Positions 13,457 to 27,008 of a stretch of 27,008 nt of DNA are shown piece by piece (position 1 is the stretch's first letter; the number at the start of each line of letters is the position of its first letter). The translations under genes were made by a program, and so were the position numbers. The stretch is from an uncultured Candidatus Saccharibacteria bacterium (GTDB lineage Bacteria; Patescibacteriota; Minisyncoccia; Phycocordibacterales; PALSA-1337), in the NCBI GenBank assembly GCA_964395365.1, contig CAYNAH010000004.1, positions 1 to 27,008 of the forward strand, given 5' to 3'. Below the pieces are notes generated by a model that did no database searches, was not told where the DNA came from, and saw only the letters and a program-made list of their open reading frames with translations.

Positions 13457-13744
13457 ATGTTGAATTCATTCATAGCTAATGTCGCAGATACATCACTACC
13501 AAATGGAATGTGGACCATATTTATTTTTGTAATACTAGCCCTACTCTTCTTTGTATTAATTATAGGTCTCTTAATTCTTAAAGGATATTCACTCTGGACA
13601 GCAGCTAGAAGAGGAGATTCAGGATGGTTTGTTGCCTTACTCATAGTTAATACCGTTGGTATCCTGGAATTATGTTATCTGTACTTCGTAGTTGGTAAAT
13701 GGAAAAAACCTAATGTGCCACCGTCAGCGCCTTCACAACAGTAA
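13457..13744 (+). CDS. DUF5652-like small membrane protein
   Basis: LKGYSLWTAARRGDSGWFVALLIVNTVGILELCYLYF matches the family pattern as I recall it. ATG at 13457 chosen. Confidence 0.7.
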   Translation: MLNSFIANVADTSLPNGMWTIFIFVILALLFFVLIIGLLILKGYSLWTAARRGDSGWFVALLIVNTVGILELCYLYFVVGKWKKPNVPPSAPSQQ

Positions 13745-14324
13745 AGTTGGATTTTACTAATACTTCATAAGCTTCTTTAAGAGTACTACCTGTAGTTGTA
13801 ACATCATCAATTATTATAATTTTCTGATTAGTTAGTGGACCCTTATTTACTTCAAACACATTCTTTGTGTTTTTAATTCTATCAACTCTACTCTTCATTG
13901 TTTGTTTATCAATATGTTTGGATCTAACTAGAAGGGAAAAGTCTTTTGAAAATCTTTTATCCTTATCAAGTCTCAACACTGCATCAATCAATATTTCACA
14001 TTGGTTATACCCCCTCTCCTTCCTTCTACTGCTTGAAATGGGTATTGGTATTAGGGTAATTGAATTACCATATCTAATTAATTCCATGTATAGGGCATAT
14101 GCTGCACATTCAATGGCATGTCTATTCTTCTTGTATTTTATCTGCCAAATCATCTCCCTAACTACCGGATCCTTATATGAGAATATAGAAGTTATATATG
14201 AGAACTCTGATTTAACTGCTCTGTTAGCTGTTTCAAACAGTTTAATAGGGGATACAGATCTGAGTTTGAGCTCAATTTGTGATGGAGGGAATATGAAATC
14301 GGCCAGATACTCAATTATTTTCAT
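13710..14324 (-). CDS. comF: ComF family phosphoribosyltransferase-like competence protein
   Basis: FSYKDPVVREMIWQIKY, LIPIPISSSRRKERGYNQ, IIIIDDVTTTGSTL. Start placed at MKIIEYLADFIFP. Confidence 0.9.
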   Translation of the reverse strand: MKIIEYLADFIFPPSQIELKLRSVSPIKLFETANRAVKSEFSYITSIFSYKDPVVREMIWQIKYKKNRHAIECAAYALYMELIRYGNSITLIPIPISSSRRKERGYNQCEILIDAVLRLDKDKRFSKDFSLLVRSKHIDKQTMKSRVDRIKNTKNVFEVNKGPLTNQKIIIIDDVTTTGSTLKEAYEVLVKSNFTVVKALTVAH

Positions 14325-14357
14325 AGTATTATATTCTACACTATACACTAAAGCATG

Positions 14358-14366
14358 TGATATAAT
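14358..14366 (+). promoter_or_regulatory. Extended -10 promoter of the pil operon (leaderless pilM)
   Basis: TG-A-TATAAT-N6-ATG. Confidence 0.65.
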
Positions 14367-14372
14367 GTAAAA

Positions 14373-15533
14373 ATGGATTTTCTTAATAAAATATTCTCAT
14401 CAATATTCTCAAGCAAAGGACAAAGTGTCTTAGGTATTGATATTGGTTCTTCAGCTATTAAAATAGTTCAGATCAAGAAGAAAAGAGGAAGAGCGGTACT
14501 TGAGACGTATGGTGAACTTGCTCTAGGTCCGTATGCTGGAGTTGAGGTTGGAAGATCAACTGGACTACCAAAAGAAAAGATTATCGATGCTTTAAAGGAT
14601 ATTTTAAGAGAAGCAAAAACAACTACTCTATCTTGCGGTGTTGCATTACCACTTTCTTCTAGTCTTATTACTTTTATAACCATACCTCAAGTTCCTGAAA
14701 AGCAATTACAAGAAGTGGTTTCATTGGAGGCAAGAAAATATATACCTGTACCTATGAGTGAGGTTATGTTTGATTATTCAGTAATACCTCGTGAAGATAG
14801 TTTTTCATCTGATCCACAAGATGTTGAAGGTGTGAAGGCGGATGAAAAGGTTCCAGGAAAAGAAGCTGCACCGGTTGCAAAACAGCAATCACAAGATGTA
14901 TTAGTTGTTGCTATACACAATGAATACATTAATAATTATCAGGCAATATCTGCTAGCTTAAACCTCCAACCATCTTTTTATGAGATAGAAATATTTAGTT
15001 CTATAAGAGCAGTGGTAGAACAAGGCATTCAAGCTGTTATGGTTATAGATATGGGTGCTCAATCAACAAAGCTATATATTATCGAAAGAGGACTATTACG
15101 AGCATCTCATATCATTAATCGTGGATCGCAGGATATAACATTAGCAATATCTAAATCTCTGAGTCTAACTGTGAATGAAGCAGAAAATATGAAGAGATCC
15201 TATGGGCTCAAGGGTGGTCCAGAGTATAAAGAGCTAACTGAGGTTATAACTGTCAATCTAGACTATATATTCTATGAAGCTAATGCGGCACTTCTAAACT
15301 ATCAGAAGAAATATATGAAAAACATTAGTAAGGTAATCCTAACTGGAGGAGGAGTGCTCTTAAAGGGCTTCACTGATTTAGCAAAAGTGAGCTTCCAAAC
15401 TGAAGTTGTCTACGCTAATCCATTCTCTAAACTAGAAACTCCAGCATTCCTTAATGAACAATTCCAAACAGCAGGTCCAGAGTTTGCTGTAGCTATCGGC
15501 TGTGCATTACGTAGATTGTCTGAATTGGAATAA
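14373..15533 (+). CDS. pilM: Type IV pilus assembly protein PilM
   Basis: Actin-like motifs LGIDIGSSAIK, VIDMGAQST, VILTGGG, NPFSKL, FAVAIGCALR. Confidence 0.92.
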   Translation: MDFLNKIFSSIFSSKGQSVLGIDIGSSAIKIVQIKKKRGRAVLETYGELALGPYAGVEVGRSTGLPKEKIIDALKDILREAKTTTLSCGVALPLSSSLITFITIPQVPEKQLQEVVSLEARKYIPVPMSEVMFDYSVIPREDSFSSDPQDVEGVKADEKVPGKEAAPVAKQQSQDVLVVAIHNEYINNYQAISASLNLQPSFYEIEIFSSIRAVVEQGIQAVMVIDMGAQSTKLYIIERGLLRASHIINRGSQDITLAISKSLSLTVNEAENMKRSYGLKGGPEYKELTEVITVNLDYIFYEANAALLNYQKKYMKNISKVILTGGGVLLKGFTDLAKVSFQTEVVYANPFSKLETPAFLNEQFQTAGPEFAVAIGCALRRLSELE

Positions 15534-15551
15534 TCAACTATAATTATATTG

Positions 15552-16187
15552 ATGGATACTAAATTTCAAACATCGTTCATTCCCAAAAAACCAATTCTCA
15601 TGGATCAGAAGGTTACAAAACACTCTGGCGGTGGAAGTGTGTTTATGTTTATCTCCGTAATCCTTTTTCTAGCATCAGTTGCTGGTGCAGGATTTACTTT
15701 TGTTTGGAAAGACATACTATTAAAACAACAAGAAAATTACAAAGTAGAATTAAAAAAAGCCGAAGCACGTTTTGATGTTGAACTGATTTCAAAATTAAAA
15801 AAGGTAAATACAAAGCTTGATTTAGGTAGCAAGTTGTTGAAGAAGCACCTAGCAATATCAGAAATTTTTGCAATCCTAAACTCGCTGACTACAGAGGGTA
15901 TACGTTTTACTAGCTTCGAATTTACTGCTCCTGAGTCAGAGAAAGACCTATTAAAGATATCCCTTAAGGGAGTGGGTAATAGCTTCAGTGCTATCGCATG
16001 GCAATCTGATGTATTTGGACAATCAACTAAGTTTGGAAAGAACAAGGTGGTTAAGAATCCAATTCTAACCGATCTAGTACTTGATGATAAGGGTAATGTT
16101 GCTTTCACATTCACAGCGAGCCTCGATCCATCAGATGTATCATATGAAAAAGTTTTAACAGAGGATACTAGTACTTCAAAACCATAA
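15552..16187 (+). CDS. PilN-like pilus assembly protein
   Basis: Follows pilM. Has an N-terminal TM, a coiled coil and a ferredoxin-like segment (EGIRFTSFEF...ISLKGVGNSF). Confidence 0.7.
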   Translation: MDTKFQTSFIPKKPILMDQKVTKHSGGGSVFMFISVILFLASVAGAGFTFVWKDILLKQQENYKVELKKAEARFDVELISKLKKVNTKLDLGSKLLKKHLAISEIFAILNSLTTEGIRFTSFEFTAPESEKDLLKISLKGVGNSFSAIAWQSDVFGQSTKFGKNKVVKNPILTDLVLDDKGNVAFTFTASLDPSDVSYEKVLTEDTSTSKP

Positions 16188-16191
16188 TTTT

Positions 16192-16758
16192 ATGAATAAA
16201 AACGTAACACCTCTCATACTAATAGTGCTAGCAATTGGAATATACTTCACCTTTACGCGTACAAAGATGGAGGAATTAGATTCTGTAAAAGTTGTAAATG
16301 CTCAGTACCAGCAAGCTCTTGATAATTCAGAGAAACTAATCAAGGTTAGAGACTCAGTTCTTGCTACGTATAACAAAATAAGTCCAGATGATCAGGATAG
16401 ACTGGAAAGAATATTACCTGACAATGTAGACAATGTTCGTTTAATTATTGATGTTAACGGTGTTGCATCAAGACATGGTTTAGCTATAAAAAATGTTAAG
16501 ACAATAACAACTAAGGATGCAGTAGAACCACTTAAAACTGCAAATCAAGCTGTGGCTGGATTGAGTACTGCAAATACTTACAATACAGTAACCCTATCTT
16601 TTGATATTAATAGTAATTATCAGAATTTTATTAACTTCCTTCAGGACCTGGAGGCAAGTTTACGTGTAATTGAAATATCAAAGATTACCTTGAAGGCAAG
16701 TGATACAGGAAATTATGATTACAATGTTGAGATTAAAACATTCTGGTTAAAACAATAA
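16192..16758 (+). CDS. pilO: PilO-like pilus assembly protein
   Basis: TM, coiled coil, ILPDNVD, YQNFINFLQDLEASLRVIEI. Operon position fits. Confidence 0.78.
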   Translation: MNKNVTPLILIVLAIGIYFTFTRTKMEELDSVKVVNAQYQQALDNSEKLIKVRDSVLATYNKISPDDQDRLERILPDNVDNVRLIIDVNGVASRHGLAIKNVKTITTKDAVEPLKTANQAVAGLSTANTYNTVTLSFDINSNYQNFINFLQDLEASLRVIEISKITLKASDTGNYDYNVEIKTFWLKQ

Positions 16759-16762
16759 TATT

Positions 16763-17122
16763 ATGCAACAAAAATCACCATCAAAAGGTACATTCATAGC
16801 TCTCATCGTTATAGCCATGGTAACACTAGGTCTCTATTTCTATTACAAAGGCACACCATCAGATAGTACATCTTCACTCAGTGTTATTGGCTCACCAGAA
16901 TCTGCAGATGCACAACTTGCTGCTGATAGGGTCTTGGTCCTTTTGAATACAATTTCATCTCTAAAGATAGACGATTCATTGTTTAAATCTGCTGTATATA
17001 ATTCTTTACGTGACTATACAATCACAATACCAGAACAAGGTGTGGGTAGACCAAATCCATTTGCACCAATCGGTGGGGCTGTACCATCGCCAATTAAATT
17101 ACCAGCAGGTACTGGACGTTAA
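16763..17122 (+). CDS. Membrane-anchored pil-operon protein (PilP position; GRPNPFAP motif)
   Basis: N-terminal TM and a GRPNPF motif reminiscent of PilP RDPF. Lies between pilO and pilB. Confidence 0.65.
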   Translation: MQQKSPSKGTFIALIVIAMVTLGLYFYYKGTPSDSTSSLSVIGSPESADAQLAADRVLVLLNTISSLKIDDSLFKSAVYNSLRDYTITIPEQGVGRPNPFAPIGGAVPSPIKLPAGTGR

Positions 17123-17132
17123 TGATTAATAT

Positions 17133-18851
17133 ATGAGTGTTGTAGATATACTTTTTAACAAAAATCTCATAACAAAAGATGATATTGCAGAGATTAAAAA
17201 AAGAATCTCTAAGGGCGAAATTCTTGATCAAATTTTAATCGAGAAAGGTATACACCCAGATGACATCCTCGCTGCACATGGTGAATTTCTAAATATCCCA
17301 ACTAGAAGTCTAGGAGATGCTACTGTTCCATTTGAGGCCCTAGACTATATTCCTGAGGAATCAGCTTCACATTACAAATTTGTACCTATAGGTTTACAAG
17401 ATGGGGCACTTGAAGTTGGTATCGTTGATCCAGATAATATAGAGGCAAGGGATGCTCTTAACTTTATAGCAGCAAAGAATAATGTTCCATATAAAGTCTA
17501 TCTGATCACTCTAGAAGACTTTCAAAAGGTTCTGGGTTCATACAAGGGTATTGGTGGTGAAGTATCAAAGGCACTGACTGAACTCGAATCAGTTCTTTCT
17601 GTTGATAAGGCAGGAACTATTGATCTAAAACAAGATAATAAACCAGATAAAAAGGCTGATGCTGTAATCATTGAGGATGCACCCGTTGTTAAGATCGTTG
17701 CAACTATAGTTAGATATGCAACAGAAGGTAATGCATCCGATGTACACATTGAACATATGCGTGATAAGGTTCGTGTACGTTTCCGTGTTGATGGAACTCT
17801 AAATACAAGTCTTGTACTACCACCACAGGTGCATAACGCTGTAGTGGCTCGTATAAAGGTGTTATGTAATATGAAGCTTGATGAAAAGAGGAAGCCTCAG
17901 GACGGTAGATTCTCTGCAAGAATAGATGGTAGAAAGATAGACTTCCGTGTATCTACATTCCCTGCATATTATGGAGAAAAGGTTGTGATGCGTATTCTAG
18001 ATCAGGAAAAGGGTGTAAAGAAAGTTGATGATATGAGTTTAACACCAAAGAATCTAGAACTCATAAAAGAAGCGATTACGAGACCATACGGACTAATACT
18101 CATTACTGGCCCTACTGGTTCCGGTAAATCTACAACCCTGTATTCCATGTTAAATGAAGTAGATAGAGAGGGTATGAATGTGCTATCTCTCGAAGACCCT
18201 ATCGAATACAACATGGATGGTGTAAGTCAGTCACAAGTCCATCCAGAAATCGGATATACCTTTGCTGCCGGTTTGCGTACAACACTTAGACAAGACCCAG
18301 ACATAATCATGGTGGGAGAGATTCGAGACAAGGAAACTGCTCAACTAGCTGTACAAGCAGCTCTAACAGGACACTTGGTGTTCTCAACACTCCACACTAA
18401 TAGTTCTGCTGGAGTTATCCCGCGTTTGATTGATATGGGTGTGGATCCGTATCTAATTGCGCCAACTTTGATTCTAACAATCGCTCAACGTCTTGTATCT
18501 ATGCTACCTCCTAATGCTGGTAAACCAATACCAGTGGAGGGAAGTATAAAAATGATGATAGACAAGCAGTTTTCTGATCTTCCTGAACAGTATAAGAAAG
18601 ATATACCTATGACAAATACTGTTTATGGTATCGAACCTACACCTGATTGCCCTAAGGGAACAAGAGGAAGAATGGCGGTGTTTGAAGTATTTAAAATGGA
18701 TAAGGAAATTGAGAATGTTATCCTCAAGAGTCCAACAGAACTGGAGATCAGTAGACTACTTCGACAGAAGGGTATGTTAACAATGAAAGAGGATGCAATG
18801 ATAAAGGCATTCCAGAGACAGATTCCTTTTGAAGAAGTGAATAAGCTGTAG
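17133..18851 (+). CDS. pilB: PilB/GspE-family pilus extension ATPase
   Basis: N-terminal GspE/MshEN-like region, ASDVHIE, RKPQDGRF, Walker A GPTGSGKST, LEDPIEY, LRQDPDIIMVGEIRD, TGHLVFSTLHTN. Confidence 0.93.
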   Translation: MSVVDILFNKNLITKDDIAEIKKRISKGEILDQILIEKGIHPDDILAAHGEFLNIPTRSLGDATVPFEALDYIPEESASHYKFVPIGLQDGALEVGIVDPDNIEARDALNFIAAKNNVPYKVYLITLEDFQKVLGSYKGIGGEVSKALTELESVLSVDKAGTIDLKQDNKPDKKADAVIIEDAPVVKIVATIVRYATEGNASDVHIEHMRDKVRVRFRVDGTLNTSLVLPPQVHNAVVARIKVLCNMKLDEKRKPQDGRFSARIDGRKIDFRVSTFPAYYGEKVVMRILDQEKGVKKVDDMSLTPKNLELIKEAITRPYGLILITGPTGSGKSTTLYSMLNEVDREGMNVLSLEDPIEYNMDGVSQSQVHPEIGYTFAAGLRTTLRQDPDIIMVGEIRDKETAQLAVQAALTGHLVFSTLHTNSSAGVIPRLIDMGVDPYLIAPTLILTIAQRLVSMLPPNAGKPIPVEGSIKMMIDKQFSDLPEQYKKDIPMTNTVYGIEPTPDCPKGTRGRMAVFEVFKMDKEIENVILKSPTELEISRLLRQKGMLTMKEDAMIKAFQRQIPFEEVNKL

Positions 18852-18885
18852 TGATACTGTGTTATAATTGTGTCATAATATAACC

Positions 18886-19275
18886 ATGAATCCAAAATCA
18901 ATTCTTTTTGTAGATGATGATAAATTTCTTCTAGATATGTATGCTTTGAAGTTCTCAAAGAATAACTTTAAAGTGAATACTTGTGCTGGTACTGAAGAAG
19001 CTTTGAAAATGATTAGAGATGGTTTTGAGCCAGATGTACTTTTACTTGATGTAGTAATGCCAGGTATGGATGGTGTTGAACTACTCGCTACACTTAGAAA
19101 AGAGAATTTAATTAAAAAAACTACTGTAATCATGCTTACAAACCAAGGGTTACCTGATGATATATCGAGAGCGAAGAAACTTGGTGTTGATGGGTACATT
19201 ATTAAAGCAACAACTATACCTTCAGAAGTCTTAAGTGAAGTGGAGAAGATTTGTGCAGGTGTTGTAAAGAAATAA
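18886..19275 (+). CDS. Single-domain CheY-like response regulator
   Basis: ILFVDDD, LLLDVVMPGMDG, IMLTN, YIIKA. ATG at 18886. Confidence 0.92.
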   Translation: MNPKSILFVDDDKFLLDMYALKFSKNNFKVNTCAGTEEALKMIRDGFEPDVLLLDVVMPGMDGVELLATLRKENLIKKTTVIMLTNQGLPDDISRAKKLGVDGYIIKATTIPSEVLSEVEKICAGVVKK

Positions 19276-19284
19276 AATAAAAAT

Positions 19285-20343
19285 ATGGATTTTAAAAAAG
19301 ATATAGAAGAATTGGTAAGTACGGTGCTTAGAGAAGGTGCATCAGATTTGCATCTTTCACAGGGACGCGTGCCACATATACGTGTATCTGGAAATTTGAT
19401 ACCACTTGCAAAGAAATCTGTTAGTACTGAGGCTGATATGAAAGGGTATATAAATACCTTTTTAAGTGATGAGAATAAGGAGCTTTTAATGAAAGATAAG
19501 GATGTAGATTTTTCATATAGTTTAACAAATGCTCGTTTCCGAGGTAATGCATACTATCATCAGTCTTCACTATCTATCGCACTTAGACTCATTCCTAAAC
19601 AAATTAAAACTCTAGCAGATCTAAATCTTCCACCCATACTTGAATCTTTTACAAGAAAACAACAAGGATTCTTTCTGTGCGTGGGTCCAATTGGTCAAGG
19701 TAAAAGTACAACTCTAGCAGCTTTGATTGAAATCATTAATCAAACAAGAAGTGAACATATAATAACCATTGAAGATCCAATAGAATATATATATGAGTCA
19801 AAGAAATCTATTATTGATCAAAGAGAAGTAAGAATTGATACTCCAGATTTCAAGAATGCATTGATTGCCATGTTCCGAGAGGATATCGACGTTGCTTTGG
19901 TGGGTGAGATGCGAGATCCAGAAACTATATCTACTGCCGTAACCGCAGCTGAGACAGGACACCTAGTTTTCTCAACTTTGCATACCAATAATGCTGCACA
20001 GACAATAAACCGTATAATAGACTCATTCCCATCATCTCAACAGGATCAAATCAGAGTTCAACTTGCTGGAAGTATGACAGGTATATTCTCTCAGAGATTA
20101 ATTCCAAGAATTTCTGGTGGTTTGATTCCTGCATATGAATTGCTAATTAATAACGCAGCCGTTGCCAATTTAATCAGAGAAAAGAGAATTCATGAAATAA
20201 ATACAGTAATAGAAACAAGTTCAGGTGATGGAATGATAGATATGAATAGATCACTTGCTGAACTCGTAAGAAGGGGAGAGATAACAGTTGAGAGTGCATA
20301 TGTGAACTCATTTAATCCAAAAAATCTTGAACGAATGGTATAA
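19285..20343 (+). CDS. pilT: PilT/PilU-family retraction ATPase
   Basis: ASDLHL, Walker A variant GPIGQGKST, IEDPIEY, VGEMRD, AETGHLVFSTLHTN, AVANLIRE. Confidence 0.92.
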   Translation: MDFKKDIEELVSTVLREGASDLHLSQGRVPHIRVSGNLIPLAKKSVSTEADMKGYINTFLSDENKELLMKDKDVDFSYSLTNARFRGNAYYHQSSLSIALRLIPKQIKTLADLNLPPILESFTRKQQGFFLCVGPIGQGKSTTLAALIEIINQTRSEHIITIEDPIEYIYESKKSIIDQREVRIDTPDFKNALIAMFREDIDVALVGEMRDPETISTAVTAAETGHLVFSTLHTNNAAQTINRIIDSFPSSQQDQIRVQLAGSMTGIFSQRLIPRISGGLIPAYELLINNAAVANLIREKRIHEINTVIETSSGDGMIDMNRSLAELVRRGEITVESAYVNSFNPKNLERMV

Positions 20344-20355
20344 TATAATCAATAT

Positions 20356-21564
20356 ATGCTTTTTAACTATCAATCAGTAGACCAAACAGGTGCACCAAAG
20401 ACAGGATCAATAGATGCTGCAAATGTTGATATAGCAATTGCATCCCTGCAAAGAAGAGGCTTGGTCATCACATCAATTAATGAAGAGGGGAAGAAAGATG
20501 GTATTCTATCAATGAATATTAACTGGTTTGAAAGAGTGTCTAATAAAGACGTTGTGATCCTTTCTAGACAATTGGCTACACTCTTTGAGGCTCAGGTGTC
20601 GGCGCTACGAATATTCAGACTTCTAGGTGCTGAAGCTGAAAACAAGCTTCTAGGTAGAAACCTGGTTCAGATTTCTGATGATCTACAAGCTGGAAGTACA
20701 ATTTCTGCTGCCTTACAAAAACATCCAAAAGTTTTCTCTGAATTCTACGTAAGCATGGTTAAAGCGGGTGAAGAGTCTGGTAAGTTGAATGAAACTTTCA
20801 GCTATCTTGCAGATTACCTAGATCGTACATATGAACTTGTCTCAAAAGCAAAGAGTGCCCTTATATATCCAGCTTTCGTTATGATGACTTTTATTACTGT
20901 GATGGTTCTAATGTTCACTATGGTTATACCTAAGATTAGTGCAATTCTTGTTGATTCTGGTCAGGATATACCTGTATATACAAAAGTAGTGTTGGGGATA
21001 AGTAATTTCCTAGTTAATAATGGTTTTATAATGCTTGCAGTAGTAATTATCGGAGGATTCTTCTTGGTTAGGTTTATAAGAACACCTGCTGGTTCAGCGA
21101 TATTTGATCAATTCAAACTAAGTATCCCATATTTGAGTAATTTATATAGAAAGCTATACTGGGCTAGACTATCTGACAATATGAATACAATGCTTTCTGC
21201 TGGAATACCAATGATTAGATCTATAGAACTAACCGCATCCGTTATAGATAACAGTATATATAAGAAAATTATGGCAGATGCTGTTGAATCAGTTAAAGCG
21301 GGAAAAACTGTATCTGAATCTCTATCAGGAAATGGGGAAATACCAGGAATCATGATTCAAATGATGAGAGTTGGGGAGGAATCAGGAGAATTGGGAAATA
21401 TATTGAAGACACTGGCTCGTTTTTATGCTCGTGAGGTAACCACAGCAGTAGATGCTCTGGTAGATCTTATCGAACCATTGATGATTGTTATGCTCGGTCT
21501 CGGTGTAGCAACACTCCTTGCCTCAGTTCTTATCCCTATTTACAACGTTGCGAGTGCACAATAG
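20356..21564 (+). CDS. pilC: PilC/GspF inner-membrane platform protein
   Basis: Two T2SSF repeats: GEESGKLNETF...ALIYPAFV and GEESGELG...LIEPLMIV...PIYN. Confidence 0.93.
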   Translation: MLFNYQSVDQTGAPKTGSIDAANVDIAIASLQRRGLVITSINEEGKKDGILSMNINWFERVSNKDVVILSRQLATLFEAQVSALRIFRLLGAEAENKLLGRNLVQISDDLQAGSTISAALQKHPKVFSEFYVSMVKAGEESGKLNETFSYLADYLDRTYELVSKAKSALIYPAFVMMTFITVMVLMFTMVIPKISAILVDSGQDIPVYTKVVLGISNFLVNNGFIMLAVVIIGGFFLVRFIRTPAGSAIFDQFKLSIPYLSNLYRKLYWARLSDNMNTMLSAGIPMIRSIELTASVIDNSIYKKIMADAVESVKAGKTVSESLSGNGEIPGIMIQMMRVGEESGELGNILKTLARFYAREVTTAVDALVDLIEPLMIVMLGLGVATLLASVLIPIYNVASAQ

Positions 21565-21575
21565 CTAGATTTTAC

Positions 21576-21584
21576 TTATCCACA
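21576..21584 (+). promoter_or_regulatory. Perfect DnaA-box sequence TTATCCACA
   Basis: Exact consensus 9-mer between pilC and the first pilin. Single copy, function unproven. Confidence 0.4.
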
Positions 21585-21613
21585 CGGGGTATTTAACCTA
21601 TTTTCCTAGGTTT

Positions 21614-21622
21614 TGCTATAAT
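21614..21622 (+). promoter_or_regulatory. Extended -10 promoter of pilin copy 1
   Basis: TG-C-TATAAT, 53 nt upstream of the ATG. Confidence 0.55.
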
Positions 21623-21675
21623 TAGCGCCATAAGTTTAATTATTAAAGTTTATTATTTAGGTTAATTAATTCGTT

Positions 21676-22167
21676 ATGAAGAAAACATATTTACAAAGAG
21701 GATTTACATTGATTGAGTTGCTTGTAGTTATTGCTATAATCGGTGTACTATCTTCCGTAGTGCTAGCTTCTCTTTCAACAGCAAGAAACAAAGGAAAGGC
21801 TACAGCTGTTAAGAGTGGTCTAGCTAGTCTAAGAACACAGATGGAAATTAAAGCAAATGGTACCAATTATGGTACAGGAACAGTTGGTGTTGGAGACGAT
21901 GCTTGTAACCTTGCTGGTACAAATTACACAACAGCAGTAGATGCTGCTGCAGGTGCTATCGTAACAAACATCACTAGTAACCTATCAGCAGCTACAAACC
22001 TATACTGTTCAACTGATGCAGCGTCTGCAGCAACAAAGTTTGCAGCAGCAGCACTACTTCCAGATGGAACAGGAGTACAATGTGTAGATACTAGTGGAAA
22101 CACAAAGTTGTATGGAGGCGTAACTTCAGTCACAACAACACAAATCAACAACGGTGCTTGTATATAG
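21676..22167 (+). CDS. Type IV pilin (PilA-like), copy 1
   Basis: Class III signal QRG|FTLIELLVVIAIIGVL with E5. Four Cys; Thr/Ala/Asn-rich head. Confidence 0.95.
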   Translation: MKKTYLQRGFTLIELLVVIAIIGVLSSVVLASLSTARNKGKATAVKSGLASLRTQMEIKANGTNYGTGTVGVGDDACNLAGTNYTTAVDAAAGAIVTNITSNLSAATNLYCSTDAASAATKFAAAALLPDGTGVQCVDTSGNTKLYGGVTSVTTTQINNGACI

Positions 22168-22192
22168 TTATACAGTTAATATCTAAACCAAC

Positions 22193-22219
22193 AAAACTCC
22201 GCCCACAAGGCGGGGTTTT
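22193..22219. terminator. Bidirectional intrinsic terminator
   Basis: AAAACTCCGCC-CACAA-GGCGGGGTTTT, between the pilin and the convergent gene ending at 22227. Confidence 0.85.
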
Positions 22220-22226
22220 GGTTTGA

Positions 22227-23813
22227 CTAAATTGCGACTTCCATCACCTTTAATTCTTTGTCTGAGTATACTGTTTTTCTTATATATTTTTTCATATCCT
22301 TATTTAGACTATTTAATTCATTAGTGTTGAGCACTAAGTATTTTACTCCGTAATCGCGAACAGCTTTTTTGAATGTAATTTCATCACGTAATACATTTTT
22401 ACCGACGAACTCTCTTTCTTTTGAGTGGAGGTAGTAATATTCAAAATTAAGGGTCCATAATTGTTTTACGTTGGTAAATATCGGTACTAGGTTTTCAATG
22501 TTTGGTGACACTATTACACTATCAATTGGTAATTCTGATTGAATGAAGTTGAGGACAGGGGCATATTTTTGATTCAATATTGATTGTTGTAGATATAGGC
22601 CATATATCTGAGTCTGTACAATCAAACCATTTGTTGTTGTAATGAGTATAACCACAACCAGTATTATATTATTGGTTCTTACGTGCTTTATTGTTACATT
22701 CATAACATAACACACAAAAATTATAAAGATTGGGGTAATATAATAATTGTAGAAATGGAAGTATTGCACTACCATGCCCGATATTACATGCTGGTTTACA
22801 GCGACGAAGCAACTTGAAATGAGAGTCAAAATAAAGACCTCATTCGAGGTTAGTGTTTTGTTCTTTTTAATCCAAATTGATACTATTGCTAATAGTGTAG
22901 CTAAGATGCAAAGACCGTAATATGTGATATGGGGAACATGTGTACGTATTACACCGTAATCAATCATATTACTCTGGAATGGGTGTAAAACTAGTAAAAT
23001 TGAAGAGGTGATAATGGGTATTCCAATAAAAATTCCCATTACAAAAGAAAGCATAAAGTATATTGTACTTTTTTTATCCTTTTTATAAAAAAAATATAAA
23101 ATATAAATAACCATAATTGAGGTTATGAATAGGTAGGTATATAAATAAATATAAAACGATACTCCATACAACACACCTAATACTAAAATATTGAATCTCC
23201 TTGGGTCTCTGGTGACTGAAAGGAGATAATGTAGATAAGTGAAAAAGAAGATAGAGCTGAAAAGAGGATTTACAATTCTTGAATATAACATATAGTCAAG
23301 ATAATCTATTTTATCTAAAGTAATGATTGAAAGTATATTGGGTAGGTAGATTAAATCACGTACATTTATTAAGTTATTGCCTAATAGTATCAATAGCATT
23401 CCTGTTGATGACACACTCTTTTTTTGAGTTAGTCTATAAATTAATGAGTATATTAGAAGTGAAAGTATGACTGGTAATAAAAAATCATAAGTATACTTAA
23501 GTTGTGTAATTGATAAGCCGGTAAAAGTTTTCGGTATGGCAAGAAATATCGTCGAAATTGAAGTGTCAAAAAAGGGTAAATCCTTCTGCTCCATTTCAGA
23601 AAAAGGATTACATTTGAGCCAGCATCCTCTAGATGCGGCATTTATGCGTGACAGATAAAAATCATCAGAATCAGAATACATCATCGGTATGCCACGGTAA
23701 TTAGTATTATATACGAATAGTGTGTTTGGTAATGACAATACCAATCCTATAATTATCGCTAATATTATAGCCAAATAATGACTTTCAATTACTTTTATTA
23801 ACTTCCCAATCAT
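22227..23813 (-). CDS. Polytopic membrane protein, probable GT-C-fold glycosyltransferase (STT3/ArnT-like architecture)
   Basis: N-terminal TM, then DSDDFYLSR in the first external loop, about 11-13 TM helices, and a soluble C-terminal domain ending in YGVKYLVL. Co-transcribed with a GT2. Confidence 0.6.
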   Translation of the reverse strand: MIGKLIKVIESHYLAIILAIIIGLVLSLPNTLFVYNTNYRGIPMMYSDSDDFYLSRINAASRGCWLKCNPFSEMEQKDLPFFDTSISTIFLAIPKTFTGLSITQLKYTYDFLLPVILSLLIYSLIYRLTQKKSVSSTGMLLILLGNNLINVRDLIYLPNILSIITLDKIDYLDYMLYSRIVNPLFSSIFFFTYLHYLLSVTRDPRRFNILVLGVLYGVSFYIYLYTYLFITSIMVIYILYFFYKKDKKSTIYFMLSFVMGIFIGIPIITSSILLVLHPFQSNMIDYGVIRTHVPHITYYGLCILATLLAIVSIWIKKNKTLTSNEVFILTLISSCFVAVNQHVISGMVVQYFHFYNYYITPIFIIFVCYVMNVTIKHVRTNNIILVVVILITTTNGLIVQTQIYGLYLQQSILNQKYAPVLNFIQSELPIDSVIVSPNIENLVPIFTNVKQLWTLNFEYYYLHSKEREFVGKNVLRDEITFKKAVRDYGVKYLVLNTNELNSLNKDMKKYIRKTVYSDKELKVMEVAI

Positions 23814-24505
23814 TTCTTAAAGATTATTTTGTTTAAGTAAAATCCCACTACTTCTTTCCCGGCTCTGAAAATTACATGAAATTTTGCTCCCGTGGGGTTC
23901 CCGTGTATTCTTGCAAAATGCTTTACTGGCAATTCTTTAATTTTACAACCCTGTGATTTCATATTAAACATTAATTCTGGACTTATCATTGCACCACTGG
24001 AGATTAGTTTAATGTTCTTCAATTTACTAGCCTTAAAAAGTTTAAAAGCACAATCAATATCTTTATAATTAAGACCAAAAAGTAATTTGTTTATCTTGTT
24101 CCAAATCCAAGCATTTATTAATCTAATAATCGGATCATTCCTTTTGTATCTGTATCCTACAACCGCATCATATTCAGGAATAAATTTAATAAATTCGCAC
24201 AATTCATTTGCATCGAATTGCAGATCAGAGTCAGTGATAAAAATGTAATCATACATAGTACTTCTAATACCACTTTTTAGCGCTTCTCCGTAGCCAAGAT
24301 TATTTTTATGATTGACTATCACTAGGTTTTTAGAGTCGATACTGTTTAATATCGAACTAGTTCTATCAGTTGATCCATCATTCACAACAATTATTTCAAA
24401 TTTATCACATATTGATCTAGAGACGTCGATTAATGTTTTTACCGACCGATCTATGTTTTCGGCTTCGTTATATGCTGGTAATACTATAGATAATGAATAT
24501 TTCAT
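23810..24505 (-). CDS. GT2 glycosyltransferase (polyprenol-phosphate sugar synthase, DPM1-like)
   Basis: SIVLPAYNEAENI, IIVVNDGSTDRT, NLGYGEALKSG, DSDLQFD, DIDCAFKLF. ATGA overlaps at both ends. Confidence 0.93.
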   Translation of the reverse strand: MKYSLSIVLPAYNEAENIDRSVKTLIDVSRSICDKFEIIVVNDGSTDRTSSILNSIDSKNLVIVNHKNNLGYGEALKSGIRSTMYDYIFITDSDLQFDANELCEFIKFIPEYDAVVGYRYKRNDPIIRLINAWIWNKINKLLFGLNYKDIDCAFKLFKASKLKNIKLISSGAMISPELMFNMKSQGCKIKELPVKHFARIHGNPTGAKFHVIFRAGKEVVGFYLNKIIFKK

Positions 24506-25230
24506 TTTTTTGTACATACAAGGTAGCAGGATACTCCAAAGGGGAATGATATAGCAGGAAGGAAAGCTAACTCTGATTTGAAGATGTTATACATAATGTA
24601 ATTGGTTAGTGAATTCCCTAGATTATTCTCCGATTTGATATCTATCCGAAATACTCTAACAAGTAGACGAAATATTGCTATTGGTAAAAACAAGAGAAAA
24701 TTGAAGTATGATGAATCTAATATTATTAAACTCTGATTAACAACTAAAGTTCTAATTTCTTTCAATGTATACCTTCTAAAATGTTCGCTAACTACATCAG
24801 TGATTCCCCAAAGAAACATAAAGCAGGGAACAAATACAATTATTTTCCCATTCGGCTTCAGTATCCTTCTGGCTTCTTGCAGAACTCTGCTATCGTTTTT
24901 TGTATGTTCGAGTACATCGAGTAGTAGTACCATATCGAATGAATCGTCAGAGTATTCTAGGTTTTCTATGTCACTAACTTTTACGTTATTTAACCCCTTG
25001 TTCTTGCAAAATTCAATTGCATCTTTAGAGATATCAACACCATTAACCATGCCGTATCCCTGAAGCTCCGTCATCAACAGTCCTGTCCCACACCCAAGGT
25101 CAATAATTTTCAGGTCGTTTTTGTTCGGGAAGTGCTGACTGACTAGTTTATGAATCAGCTGTCTTCGTACTCTATACCACCAGTGTTTCTGTTCGGTTTC
25201 GTTAATAATCTCATGATGAGTCTTTCTCAT
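24502..25230 (-). CDS. Class I SAM-dependent methyltransferase (Methyltransf_11)
   Basis: EQKHWWYRVRR, IIDLGCGTG, FDMVLLLDVLEH, RILKPNG, FPFGVS. Confidence 0.92.
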   Translation of the reverse strand: MRKTHHEIINETEQKHWWYRVRRQLIHKLVSQHFPNKNDLKIIDLGCGTGLLMTELQGYGMVNGVDISKDAIEFCKNKGLNNVKVSDIENLEYSDDSFDMVLLLDVLEHTKNDSRVLQEARRILKPNGKIIVFVPCFMFLWGITDVVSEHFRRYTLKEIRTLVVNQSLIILDSSYFNFLLFLPIAIFRLLVRVFRIDIKSENNLGNSLTNYIMYNIFKSELAFLPAISFPFGVSCYLVCTKK

Positions 25231-25328
25231 GGTATAAGTACTTTATCATATTACATAAGCAGCGAATAGGCATAGATTCAGGGTGTTTATAACTACAGAT
25301 ATCGTGTATATACCTTAAATTCACCATA

Positions 25329-25337
25329 TGTTACAAT
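25329..25337 (+). promoter_or_regulatory. Extended -10 promoter of pilin copy 2
   Basis: TG-T-TACAAT, 35 nt upstream of the ATG. The surrounding sequence differs from the copy 1 promoter. Confidence 0.5.
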
Positions 25338-25372
25338 TGCAAATGTATTAGTTAATTAATTTATCGTATCTT

Positions 25373-25864
25373 ATGAATAAAACATATTTACAAAGAGGAT
25401 TTACATTGATTGAGTTGCTTGTAGTTATTGCTATAATCGGTGTACTATCTTCCGTAGTGCTAGCTTCTCTTTCAACAGCAAGAAACAAAGGAAAGGCTAC
25501 AGCTGTTAAGAGTGGTCTAGCTAGTCTAAGAACACAGATGGAAATTAAAGCAAATGGTACCAATTATGGTACAGGAACAGTTGGTGTTGGAGACGATGCT
25601 TGTAACCTTGCTGGTACAAATTACACAACAGCAGTAGATGCTGCTGCAGGTGCTATCGTAACAAACATCACTAGTAACCTATCAGCAGCTACAAACCTAT
25701 ACTGTTCAACTGATGCAGCGTCTGCAGCAACAAAGTTTGCAGCAGCAGCACTACTTCCAGATGGAACAGGAGTACAATGTGTAGATACTAGTGGAAACAC
25801 AAAGTTGTATGGAGGCGTAACTTCAGTCACAACAACACAAATCAACAACGGTGCTTGTATATAG
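25373..25864 (+). CDS. Type IV pilin (PilA-like), copy 2
   Basis: Identical to copy 1 except K2N in the leader, so the mature proteins are identical. Confidence 0.95.
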   Translation: MNKTYLQRGFTLIELLVVIAIIGVLSSVVLASLSTARNKGKATAVKSGLASLRTQMEIKANGTNYGTGTVGVGDDACNLAGTNYTTAVDAAAGAIVTNITSNLSAATNLYCSTDAASAATKFAAAALLPDGTGVQCVDTSGNTKLYGGVTSVTTTQINNGACI

Positions 25865-25889
25865 TCATACAGTTAATATCTTAACTAAC

Positions 25890-25916
25890 AAAACTCCGCC
25901 CACAAGGCGGGGTTTT
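25890..25916 (+). terminator. Intrinsic terminator (identical to 22193-22219)
   Basis: Same hairpin and T run. Confidence 0.85.
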
Positions 25917-25964
25917 GGTTTGTATGAAAGCATGCTAAAATATCCCATATAAAGTTCTAAAACT

Positions 25965-27008
25965 ATGAATGAAGAAAGGATTACATATTTCGGTGAAACT
26001 GATGCTCGAAATAAGAGAGTAAAATTTGGTATTAAGGCTAAAGATCGTACCAAACATGTATACATAATAGGTAAGACAGGTATGGGAAAGTCTACCGTAC
26101 TTGAAAATATGGCTGTTCAGGATATTAAAAATGGTGAAGGTATGGCCTTCATTGATCCACACGGTAAGACTGCTGAACTACTACTAGAATATGTTCCAGA
26201 GCATAGACAAAAGGATGTAGTATATTTTGCTCCTTTTGATATGGAATACCCAATATCTTTCAATGTGCTTGAAAGTGTTGATCCTGATAAACGACACTTG
26301 GTTGTATCTGGACTAATGAGTACGTTTAAGAAGATATGGCAGGATGCATGGTCAGCCCGAATGGAATATATCCTGACAAATACACTACTCGCACTTCTTG
26401 AATACCCAGATGCAACTCTTCTAGGTGTAAACCGAATGCTGTCTGATAAGGAGTATAGAAAGCTGGTGGTGTCATATGTTACAGATGCATCGGTAAAAGC
26501 TTTCTGGACTCAAGAATTTGCAAACTATACCGAAAGAATGGCAGCTGAGGCTGTACCAGCAATACAAAACAAAATTGGTCAGTTCACAGCTAATGCTTTG
26601 ATTAGAAATATGATAGGGCAACCTAAATCATCATTTGATATTCGTACAATGATGGATCAGGGTAAATTGTTCATAATCAACCTATCAAAAGGAAGAATTG
26701 GTGAATCAAATGCAAACCTTCTAGGAGGTATGATAATTACAAAGATATATCTAGCTGCACTTTCTCGTGCTGATGTTCCAGATACCGTACTTAAAAAACT
26801 CCCCAATTTCTATCTCTTCGTAGACGAGTTCCAATCTTTTGCCAATGAATCTTTTGCTGACATTCTCTCTGAGGCCAGAAAATACAAACTAAACCTTACA
26901 ATGGCGCATCAGTATATCGAACAGATGGAGGAGGAGGTAAGAGCAGCAGTTTTTGGTAACGTTGGTACAATGATTGTATTTAGAGTTGGTGCGTTTGATG
27001 CAGAGGTT
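25965..27008 (+). CDS. VirD4/TrwB/TraD-like (DUF87/HerA clade) ATPase, 3' partial
   Basis: Missing from the ORF track because it has no stop in the window. My translation: MNEERITYFG...HVYIIGKTGMGKST (Walker A), FIDPHG, INLSKGRIG, LFVDEFQSF (Walker B), EARKYKLNLTMAHQYIEQ. Confidence 0.9.
   Translation, partial: MNEERITYFGETDARNKRVKFGIKAKDRTKHVYIIGKTGMGKSTVLENMAVQDIKNGEGMAFIDPHGKTAELLLEYVPEHRQKDVVYFAPFDMEYPISFNVLESVDPDKRHLVVSGLMSTFKKIWQDAWSARMEYILTNTLLALLEYPDATLLGVNRMLSDKEYRKLVVSYVTDASVKAFWTQEFANYTERMAAEAVPAIQNKIGQFTANALIRNMIGQPKSSFDIRTMMDQGKLFIINLSKGRIGESNANLLGGMIITKIYLAALSRADVPDTVLKKLPNFYLFVDEFQSFANESFADILSEARKYKLNLTMAHQYIEQMEEEVRAAVFGNVGTMIVFRVGAFDAEV

Follow-up and report, generated by a model that had tools for sequence, protein, structure and literature searches.

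Identical pilin genes bracket a candidate glycosylation cassette in an uncultured saccharibacterium: probably a stable, swappable module rather than a switch

Introduction

Why should a bacterial genome carry the same pilin gene twice, once on each side of a group of glycosylation genes, and does such an arrangement act as a switch? The question is raised by a 27,008-nt stretch of DNA from an uncultured Candidatus Saccharibacteria bacterium. This stretch, which we call the window, is the entire contig C4 of a short-read metagenome-assembled genome (MAG; G000) of 642,772 bp in 67 contigs, 90% complete. Within it, two pilin genes enclose an opposite-strand operon that encodes a methyltransferase, a family 2 glycosyltransferase (GT2) and a membrane protein of the GT-C type. 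The chief surface organelle of the candidate phyla radiation (CPR)/Patescibacteria is the type IV pilus, and in Pseudomonas glycosylation of the pilin blocks pilus-specific phages. In cultivated Saccharibacteria, type IV pili mediate host binding; pilin glycosylation in Patescibacteria has so far been predicted, not shown (PMC11623550). The MAG has the genome size, GC content and gene set expected of a CPR bacterium, and we treat the window as a chromosomal pilus locus from a Paceibacteria-like member of that group; the source of one homolog of a neighboring-locus protein assigns it to Candidatus Paceibacterota.

A first-pass annotation of the window had proposed that the bracketed genes form an excisable, amplifiable or swappable module, and that recombination between the two pilin genes would turn a surface glycan on and off. 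We find that the layout is a variant of known pilin-plus-glycosylation loci, with no sign of on/off flipping. It is probably a stable module that has been swapped over evolutionary time, occupying a slot that is replaced by recombination and holding twin pilins homogenized by gene conversion, and not a working switch.

Results

The same pilin gene and terminator occur on both sides of the operon

A repeat finder, pairwise alignment and base-by-base comparison concurred on a 552-nt direct repeat whose copies are spaced 3697 nt apart, exactly as the first-pass annotation had described it. Each copy consists of a pilin open reading frame (ORF) and its terminator, and the copies differ by four mismatches; the three genes between them are read from the minus strand, methyltransferase first, then GT2, then the GT-C membrane protein.

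21674..22225, plus strand: direct repeat copy 1, pilin ORF and terminator
21676..22167, plus strand: major type IV pilin gene copy 1, 163 aa; leader MKKTYLQRG, then FTLIE; Pfam N_methyl 3.8e-9, TIGR02532
25371..25922, plus strand: direct repeat copy 2, pilin ORF and terminator
25373..25864, plus strand: major type IV pilin gene copy 2; leader MNKTYLQRG, mature protein the same as that of copy 1
21681/25378: mismatch 1, G/T, in leader codon 2, K to N
22169/25866, 22185/25882 and 22189/25886: mismatches 2 to 4, all between stop codon and terminator
24502..25230, minus strand: class I S-adenosylmethionine-dependent methyltransferase, first operon gene; Pfam Methyltransf_11 1.8e-22 and related families
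23810..24517, minus strand: GT2 glycosyltransferase, 231-235 aa; Pfam Glycos_transf_2 1.8e-28; resembles polyprenyl-phosphate sugar synthases
22227..23813, minus strand: predicted GT-C-fold membrane glycosyltransferase, 528 aa, polytopic; AlphaFold2 model and Foldseek

Because the mismatches sit only in leader codon 2 and 3' of the stop codon, the two pilin genes encode an identical mature protein. The repeat interior has no mismatch across 487 nt, and identity is lost sharply at 22226/25923. This is the longest repeat in the assembly (the runner-up is 212 nt), and it is present in exactly two copies in the whole MAG. Pilin copy 1 lies directly 3' of pilC, an order common to more than 40 relatives. 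Similarity between the sequences upstream and downstream of the two copies, as a duplication wider than the repeat would leave, was not significant (upstream p about 0.05).

The pilin gene at 21676-22167 also has a third-position GC content of only 0.207, in the 3rd percentile of long ORFs, yet the highest overall GC in the locus. The low third-position value would be compatible with the strong codon bias of a highly expressed gene.

A sister species keeps the layout with another pilin and another glycosyltransferase

We compared the interval with its counterparts in the genus (45 species genomes), where it is bounded by two conserved genes.

20356..21564, plus strand: pilC (T2SSF platform protein), Pfam T2SSF 2.4e-51; conserved left flank of the variable interval
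25965..27008, plus strand, running off the contig: VirD4/TraD-like ATPase of the type IV coupling protein type (T4CP), Pfam TrwB_AAD_bind, T4SS-DNA_transf and DUF87; conserved right flank

The sister species G002 has pil proteins 97-100% identical in amino acid sequence to those of the window (pilC, 100%). At the nucleotide level the left flank (window 13576-21794) is 92% identical, a similarity that reaches ~120 nt past the start of the pilin gene; in the right flank, identity from the terminator onward is 86%, though the T4CP protein is 99% identical. The gene order in G002 is pilC, pilin A, an opposite-strand gene encoding 468 aa, pilin B and T4CP, with the same terminator 3' of each pilin, and the 468-aa gene ends 16 nt past the terminator of pilin A. 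The G002 twins are 86% identical to each other at the amino acid level and 31% identical to the window pilin in the C-domain. The G002 layout is found again on L058, an independent metagenome contig of 76.8 kb. Since twins at 86% identity stand in the same arrangement, the twin layout is long-lived. These comparisons show the bracket to be a real feature, and its presence in G002 implies that it either predates the split between G000 and G002 or was exchanged as a unit.

The 468-aa cargo of G002 has no Pfam match itself; its homologs at 44-46% identity pass the Pfam GT2 cut-off. Its structural model (mean predicted local distance difference test, pLDDT, 84.9) matched GT-A glycosyltransferases almost exclusively, among them GlfT2, hyaluronan synthase, K4CP and GtrB. 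The model thus predicts a GT-A-fold glycosyltransferase, differing from the cargo of the window, and pilin type and glycosyltransferase have been replaced together between these close species.

Across the genus the interval between pilC and T4CP is hypervariable:

single pilin: G012, G008, G001
two to four pilins in tandem: G017, G016, G023 and numerous other genomes
pilin, then GT-C: G015, G050
pilin, GT-C, then more pilin-like genes: G020, G022
an IS1595-family transposase and two small ORFs between pilin genes that are 74% identical: G006 (L025, G006:C1, 9070-11356)
AAA_14/DUF4143 ATPase gene between pilC and a four-pilin run: G017 (L026, G017:C6, 8342-9565)

This variability supports the view that the locus is swappable over evolutionary time, the one part of the proposed excisable, amplifiable or swappable module that stood. 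The first-pass annotation had also suggested comparing the pilC-to-ATPase intervals of relatives for different cassettes between twin pilins; the intervals do differ in content, and G002 supplies the case of twin pilins around another glycosyltransferase. Tandem pilin duplicates are common in the genus, with graded identities of 100, 86, 81, 77, 74 and 72%, and the T4CP gene likewise lies 3' of the pilin block in G002, G012, G008, G015, G050, G060, G044, G001 and G017. The IS1595 transposase between the pilins of G006 indicates that a tandem-pilin gap can also host a mobile element.

Homologs of the G002 cargo, a GT-A-like family of 460-470 aa, also adjoin the 3' side of the major pilin gene, convergent with it, in three more lineages of Paceibacteria (L138, L140, L141); in L140 the gene is followed by sugar-nucleotide and UbiA-type genes. 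L141, in which an opposite-strand GT-A gene lies between two pilins, was rejected as a further case of twins, its pilins being only 35% identical. A 507-aa membrane protein beside the L140 homolog was considered as a relative of the window GT-C protein and found to be unrelated to that family.

Population data place the cassette near flank depth and carry a probable gene-conversion signature

The region was found in sequencing runs from at least four studies of wastewater, aquatic and aquaculture samples, available as Logan contigs and unitigs assembled at k = 31. In the assembly graphs of four independent studies the pilin node had about twice the depth of the flanks, approximately the sum of its in-edges. 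In run X2 the left flank (depth 18.3) and the cassette end (20.3) enter one 544-nt pilin unitig with a depth of 32.9 (~1.7x), which exits to the cassette (17.6) and to the right flank (20.2), and depth within the cassette ranges from 17.6 to 21.4. A repeat present twice, enclosing a cassette as deep as the flanks, gives a graph of this form. Run X3 gave ratios like those of X2 (flank 13.9; whole cassette, in one 3213-nt contig, 16.1; pilin 23-25). The depth of run X1 was too low to judge, its cassette/flank ratio being compatible with 1.

At 14 positions, all lying within 25429-25480, the X2 pilin unitig departs from the window; none of these changes occurs in either G000 copy. Half of these changes (7/14) match G002-A-type sequence at the same spacing, and at the three 3' single-nucleotide polymorphisms (SNPs) the unitig has the copy-2 state. 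X2 and G000 diverge by 0.4% within the cassette and by about 1% across the flanks. Since the 14 changes are common to both X2 copies, they indicate concerted evolution by gene conversion and not a fresh duplication. The patch is most readily interpreted as a gene-conversion signature combined with the import of allele patches in the conserved N-terminal segment. As judged from graph topology, paralogs within a genome are closer to each other than orthologs between strains, and they share derived changes.

In X3, a wastewater run, the pilin-cassette-pilin module was found at 99% identity and its T4CP flank (window 25925-27008) was not found at >=95% identity; the module there therefore abuts a more diverged T4CP region.

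The enclosed genes form a candidate glycosylation cassette

The operon had been described as an opposite-strand methyltransferase/GT2/GT-C-like unit with ATGA overlaps, and this was confirmed: the GT2 and GT-C genes share an ATGA overlap at 23810-23813, and the methyltransferase and GT2 genes share another, provided that GT2 starts at its second ATG (24505). The stop codon of the GT-C gene starts 1 nt past the edge of the repeat, again as first described. The impression that the cassette is more AT-rich was accurate as well, in that the GC content of the GT-C and GT2 genes is 0.30-0.31, in the 2nd-3rd percentile of 397 long ORFs in the genome, but their third-position GC is ordinary (56th-76th percentile). 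The AT-richness therefore reflects amino acid composition, and low GC as a sign of foreign origin was ruled out.

Below threshold, the GT2 protein matched the NCBIfam models for ArnC, AglJ, dolichyl-phosphate hexose transferase and PpgS, and it was likened to DPM1. The 528-aa protein had no Pfam or NCBIfam match, and a word-indexed search with it found only three relatives. A six-sequence profile run against a library of 1.8 billion proteins recovered 2595 proteins at E < 1e-3, including 756 at E < 1e-30. An AlphaFold2 model of the 528-aa protein, built on an alignment with 80 family members, had a pLDDT of 93.7 and a predicted template modeling (TM) score of 0.93. Its top 30 PDB matches were all GT-C enzymes (probability 0.99-1.00; TM score 0.31-0.56 by query, ~0.5 for the top 26), and the Foldseek matches comprised DPY19 C-mannosyltransferase, STT3/PglB/AglB, AftA, ArnT, ALG3/ALG9, PMT and Emb; Swiss-Prot models agreed. 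The protein is thus predicted to belong to the GT-C superfamily, with its multi-pass membrane fold. Immediately beyond the first helix comes an acidic cluster (D48, D50, D51), and at least 90% of the 80 family members have an acidic residue at position 50; the fold would place this loop on the extracytoplasmic side.

Two closer assignments were considered and rejected. An oligosaccharyltransferase of the STT3/PglB/AglB kind is not indicated, given no Pfam STT3 match, no WWDYG motif and a C-terminal soluble domain of ~100 aa, and the likeness to these enzymes is one at the superfamily level. Nor is a PglL/TfpO-type O-oligosaccharyltransferase, as there is no Wzy_C domain match and the fold matches are to GT-C, not to Wzy or WaaL.

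Longer members of the GT-C family bear N-terminal GT2, GtrA or GT4 domains, which ties the family to lipid-phosphate-sugar glycosylation. Together, the translationally coupled GT2 and the GtrA/GT2 fusions within the family suggest that the GT-C protein uses a polyprenyl-phosphate-linked sugar donor. The identification of the enclosed genes as a glycosylation cassette is supported at the level of fold and context, the GT-C fold of the 528-aa protein being in keeping with the earlier annotation.

The GT-C family was present in 66 of the 401 sampled genomes of the class, frequently with several paralogs each. Contig C18 of the same MAG encodes a GtrA-GT4 fusion (L144, G000:C18, 433-1881) that adjoins a second GT4 gene and is a candidate flippase partner for the cassette.

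Weighing a stable module against the alternatives

We propose that the module would operate as follows. Two pilin copies bracket the convergent three-gene operon, and each has a separate terminator and probably a separate promoter. GT2 would load a sugar onto polyprenyl phosphate at the cytoplasmic face of the membrane; after flipping, GT-C would transfer the sugar to an acceptor on its outer side, and the methyltransferase would modify the sugar or its carrier. The likeliest acceptor would be the flanking pilin, as with TfpW in Pseudomonas group IV pilins. Replacement of the pilC-to-T4CP slot may use the conserved 5' segment of the pilin as its left homology arm and the terminator/T4CP region as its right arm. 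The conversion tract that keeps the G000 copies identical would begin just past leader codon 2 and extend as far as the terminator. The cassette could be lost by a crossover between the twins, but the population data suggest a twin plus cassette at about one copy per genome.

Several observations weigh against this account. In run X5 the cassette has a depth of 4.4-6.3 and the flanks one of 7.5-8.6 (~0.7x), which could mean that some genomes lack the cassette. The k = 31 graph of an integrated twin is the same as that of a single pilin plus a free circle, and the identity of both X2 copies is read from unitig topology and depth rather than from spanning reads. An older, wider duplication is not demonstrated within this genome itself. 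The cassette has no GtrA-type flippase, and the only GtrA domain in the genome is the one fused to GT4 on contig C18. Neither a pilin nor a flanking repeat occurs within 1.5 kb of any of the 29 best class-level GT-C loci; three distant members of the GT-C family are placed in general glycan clusters.

Is the pilin the acceptor of the cassette glycan? Synteny tips the balance slightly in favor of this. The short (~520 aa) form of the GT-C protein in G000, G015, G050, G020 and G022 is always encoded directly beside the pilC-proximal pilin, and the same holds for metagenome contigs L061 and L143, giving seven loci in both orientations. L143 holds the closest homolog of the window GT-C protein, preceded by a GT2 gene whose product is 46% identical to the window GT2, and it repeats the convergent pilin/GT-C/GT2 order. 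The window pilin has four N-X-S/T sequons against 2.4 expected by shuffling (p = 0.2, not significant). Pilins adjacent to GT-C carry a mean of 2.8 sequons and other pilC-proximal pilins 1.2 (one-sided Mann-Whitney U test, p = 0.003, from related genomes whose samples are not independent); the L061 pilin has only one. It is possible, though unlikely, that the cassette modifies something else, such as an envelope glycan, a lipid or another surface protein, and is parked in a permissive gap between tandem pilins. Most members of the GT-C family are not beside pilins, the same gap carries the IS1595 transposase in G006 and the pilC-pilin gap the AAA/DUF4143 gene in G017, and four sequons are no more than shuffling yields. 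Such parking, however, sits poorly with a short GT-C subgroup that lies beside the pilC-proximal pilin at all seven loci, with an unrelated GT-A family in the same convergent slot after the major pilin in G002, L138, L140 and L141, and with the higher sequon counts, non-independent as they are, of GT-C-adjacent pilins.

A more ambitious interpretation of the stable module, and a distinctly unlikely one, is that the twin bracket is a selected, recurrent design of the CPR, in which homogenized pilins and terminators serve as portable homology arms and a pilin type is replaced as a unit with its matching glycosyltransferase. Such a design, equally doubtful in this detail, would work by natural transformation and homologous recombination, with no recombinase. 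If it were true, these would be serotype-like surface cassettes under pressure from phages or from host recognition.

We regard an active switch as quite improbable. It would have RecA-type crossing-over between the twins often delete or amplify the 3697-bp unit, producing glycan-on and glycan-off subpopulations and a transferable circle. The 544 nt of perfect direct homology are a competent substrate for homologous recombination, a single crossover would leave an intact pilin, and the reduced depth of the cassette in X5 (~0.7 of the flanks) is of the kind that deletion would give. In X2 and X3, however, the cassette is about as deep as the flanks, X1 is compatible with this, and the lower depth in X5 is explicable because that run holds several strains. 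G002 keeps the layout with twins that have diverged to 86% identity, and the circle would lack functions for replication or integration. The k = 31 contigs, which drop rare variants and cannot show the deletion product, yielded no deletion or circle joint; rare excision escapes the k = 31 graph because its product creates no new 31-mer. Exact-sequence look-ups with the pilin, GT2 and pilC for other arrangements returned only the X3 contig, which ends at the repeat. The proposed on/off switch thus finds no support in cassette depths near those of the flanks in three studies and ~0.7x in the fourth, in the lack of any alternative junction seen, or in the stability of the layout in G002. As to the coverage steps that had been suggested as a check, unitig depths give a cassette/flank ratio near 1 in X2 and X3, compatible with 1 in X1 and ~0.7 in X5, at a resolution that does not reach rare forms.

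Equally improbable is a recent duplicative acquisition without conversion, in which circular or tandem DNA carrying pilin plus cassette integrated Campbell-type into an identical resident pilin and the copies are alike because they are young. Direct repeats of exactly a gene and its terminator around a cargo are the scar expected of a single crossover, and four mismatches are few. Yet the 14-change patch shared by the X2 copies would then require homogenization after divergence or two parallel imports, the architecture is common to G002, whose twins are old, and the mismatches lie only at the repeat edges, as at the ends of conversion tracts.

Very improbable, finally, is an assembly ambiguity in which one chromosomal pilin and a separate molecule or second strain with pilin plus cassette were threaded together: both states give an identical de Bruijn graph and the genome is a short-read MAG in 67 contigs, but copy-specific SNPs were resolved, and a free circle is unlikely because the cassette/flank depth ratio comes close to 1 in all but one of the four studies (~0.7 in the remaining one), the 3.7-kb unit has no replication gene, and G002 and L058 hold integrated, diverged and unambiguous twins on 40- and 77-kb contigs.

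Relation to known systems

By analogy, the closest known system appears to be the Pseudomonas pilin-group system with TfpW. In the Pseudomonas aeruginosa group IV locus, pilA-tfpW-tfpX, TfpW is a GT-C-type arabinofuranosyltransferase, and both there and here a GT-C-type membrane enzyme is encoded beside the major pilin. Five pilA allele groups are distinguished in Pseudomonas, and the pilin allele and its accessory gene co-vary at a conserved chromosomal slot (bioRxiv 10.1101/150227), as pilin and accessory gene do at the locus described here. The sugar that TfpW transfers is supplied linked to polyprenyl phosphate; other enzymes make this donor, and a GtrA-like component takes part (bioRxiv 10.1101/2020.04.19.049825). 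The two systems differ in several respects. The window protein has no detectable sequence relation to the named TfpW/TfpO family (no Pfam match), its donor-synthesis genes (GT2 and methyltransferase) lie within the locus, and the operon is convergent and not co-transcribed with the pilin. The pilin gene is present twice, one per side, and the system as a whole is a predicted one.

A second likeness is to the three-component Gtr and ArnC-ArnT systems, which consist of a GtrA flippase, a GT2 (GtrB or ArnC) and a GT-C enzyme. The cassette likewise combines a GT2 of the polyprenyl-phosphate synthase type with a GT-C enzyme, here translationally coupled; the GT-C family of the window includes GtrA and GT2 fusions, and its fold matches include ArnT. 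In contrast to those systems, the cassette has no flippase gene, a methyltransferase is added, and a protein, not O-antigen or lipid A, is the probable acceptor.

Concerted evolution by RecA-dependent gene conversion is known in duplicated bacterial genes, for example tufA/tufB. The twin pilins resemble such cases in that paralogs within a genome are closer than orthologs between strains, tract edges are sharp and both copies are intact. Tandem major pilins are likewise on record, as in Legionella PilA1/PilA2 (PMC13170364). Unlike either pair, the twins described here are separated by 3.2 kb of opposite-strand, functionally linked cargo, and the tract corresponds exactly to ORF plus terminator.

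The locus offers a concrete candidate for a pilin-glycosylation system, composed of a GT2, a GT-C family that no Pfam or NCBIfam model describes (~2600 members) and a methyltransferase. It also presents a case in which pilin type and glycosyltransferase have been replaced together between close species while the pilin copies were kept identical within a genome. If the pilin is confirmed as the target, the CPR would have in this locus an equivalent of the Pseudomonas pilin-group system, and with it a means of approaching the phage or host specificity of uncultured episymbionts.

Transcription signals and the upstream pil operon

Promoter-like and terminator sequences were located around both pilin copies.

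21593..21622, plus strand: promoter-like site 5' of pilin copy 1, TTAACC, 18-nt spacer and TG-extended TATAAT; consensus scan, 10/12 plus TG, a pattern match only
22191..22224, both strands: predicted bidirectional terminator hairpin, GC-rich, with an A-tract before and a T-tract after it; terminator scan, minus-strand match 22213-22199
25231..25372, between the divergent cassette operon and pilin copy 2: intergenic region with a TG-extended, -10-like TACAAT at ~25329-25337, read by eye
25889..25917: predicted terminator hairpin 3' of pilin copy 2; plus-strand scan match, 12-pair stem with 7 GC pairs

The hairpin at 22191-22224, a predicted terminator on both strands, would serve both pilin copy 1 and the convergent cassette operon. 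The consensus scan did not call the TACAAT site at ~25329-25337; pilin B of G002 has a similar TGCTATAAT upstream. A further promoter-like sequence, TTGAGT with a 16-nt spacer and a TG-extended TATAAT, lies inside both pilin ORFs (21713-21740 and 25410-25437), in the segment that encodes the conserved N-terminal helix, and may be a chance match in AT-rich DNA. In G002 the hairpin of 22191-22224 likewise follows both pilins. Upstream of the module, the window contains a complete type IV pilus operon, consisting of pilM, a pilN-like gene, pilO, a small ORF, pilB, a response regulator gene, pilT and pilC.

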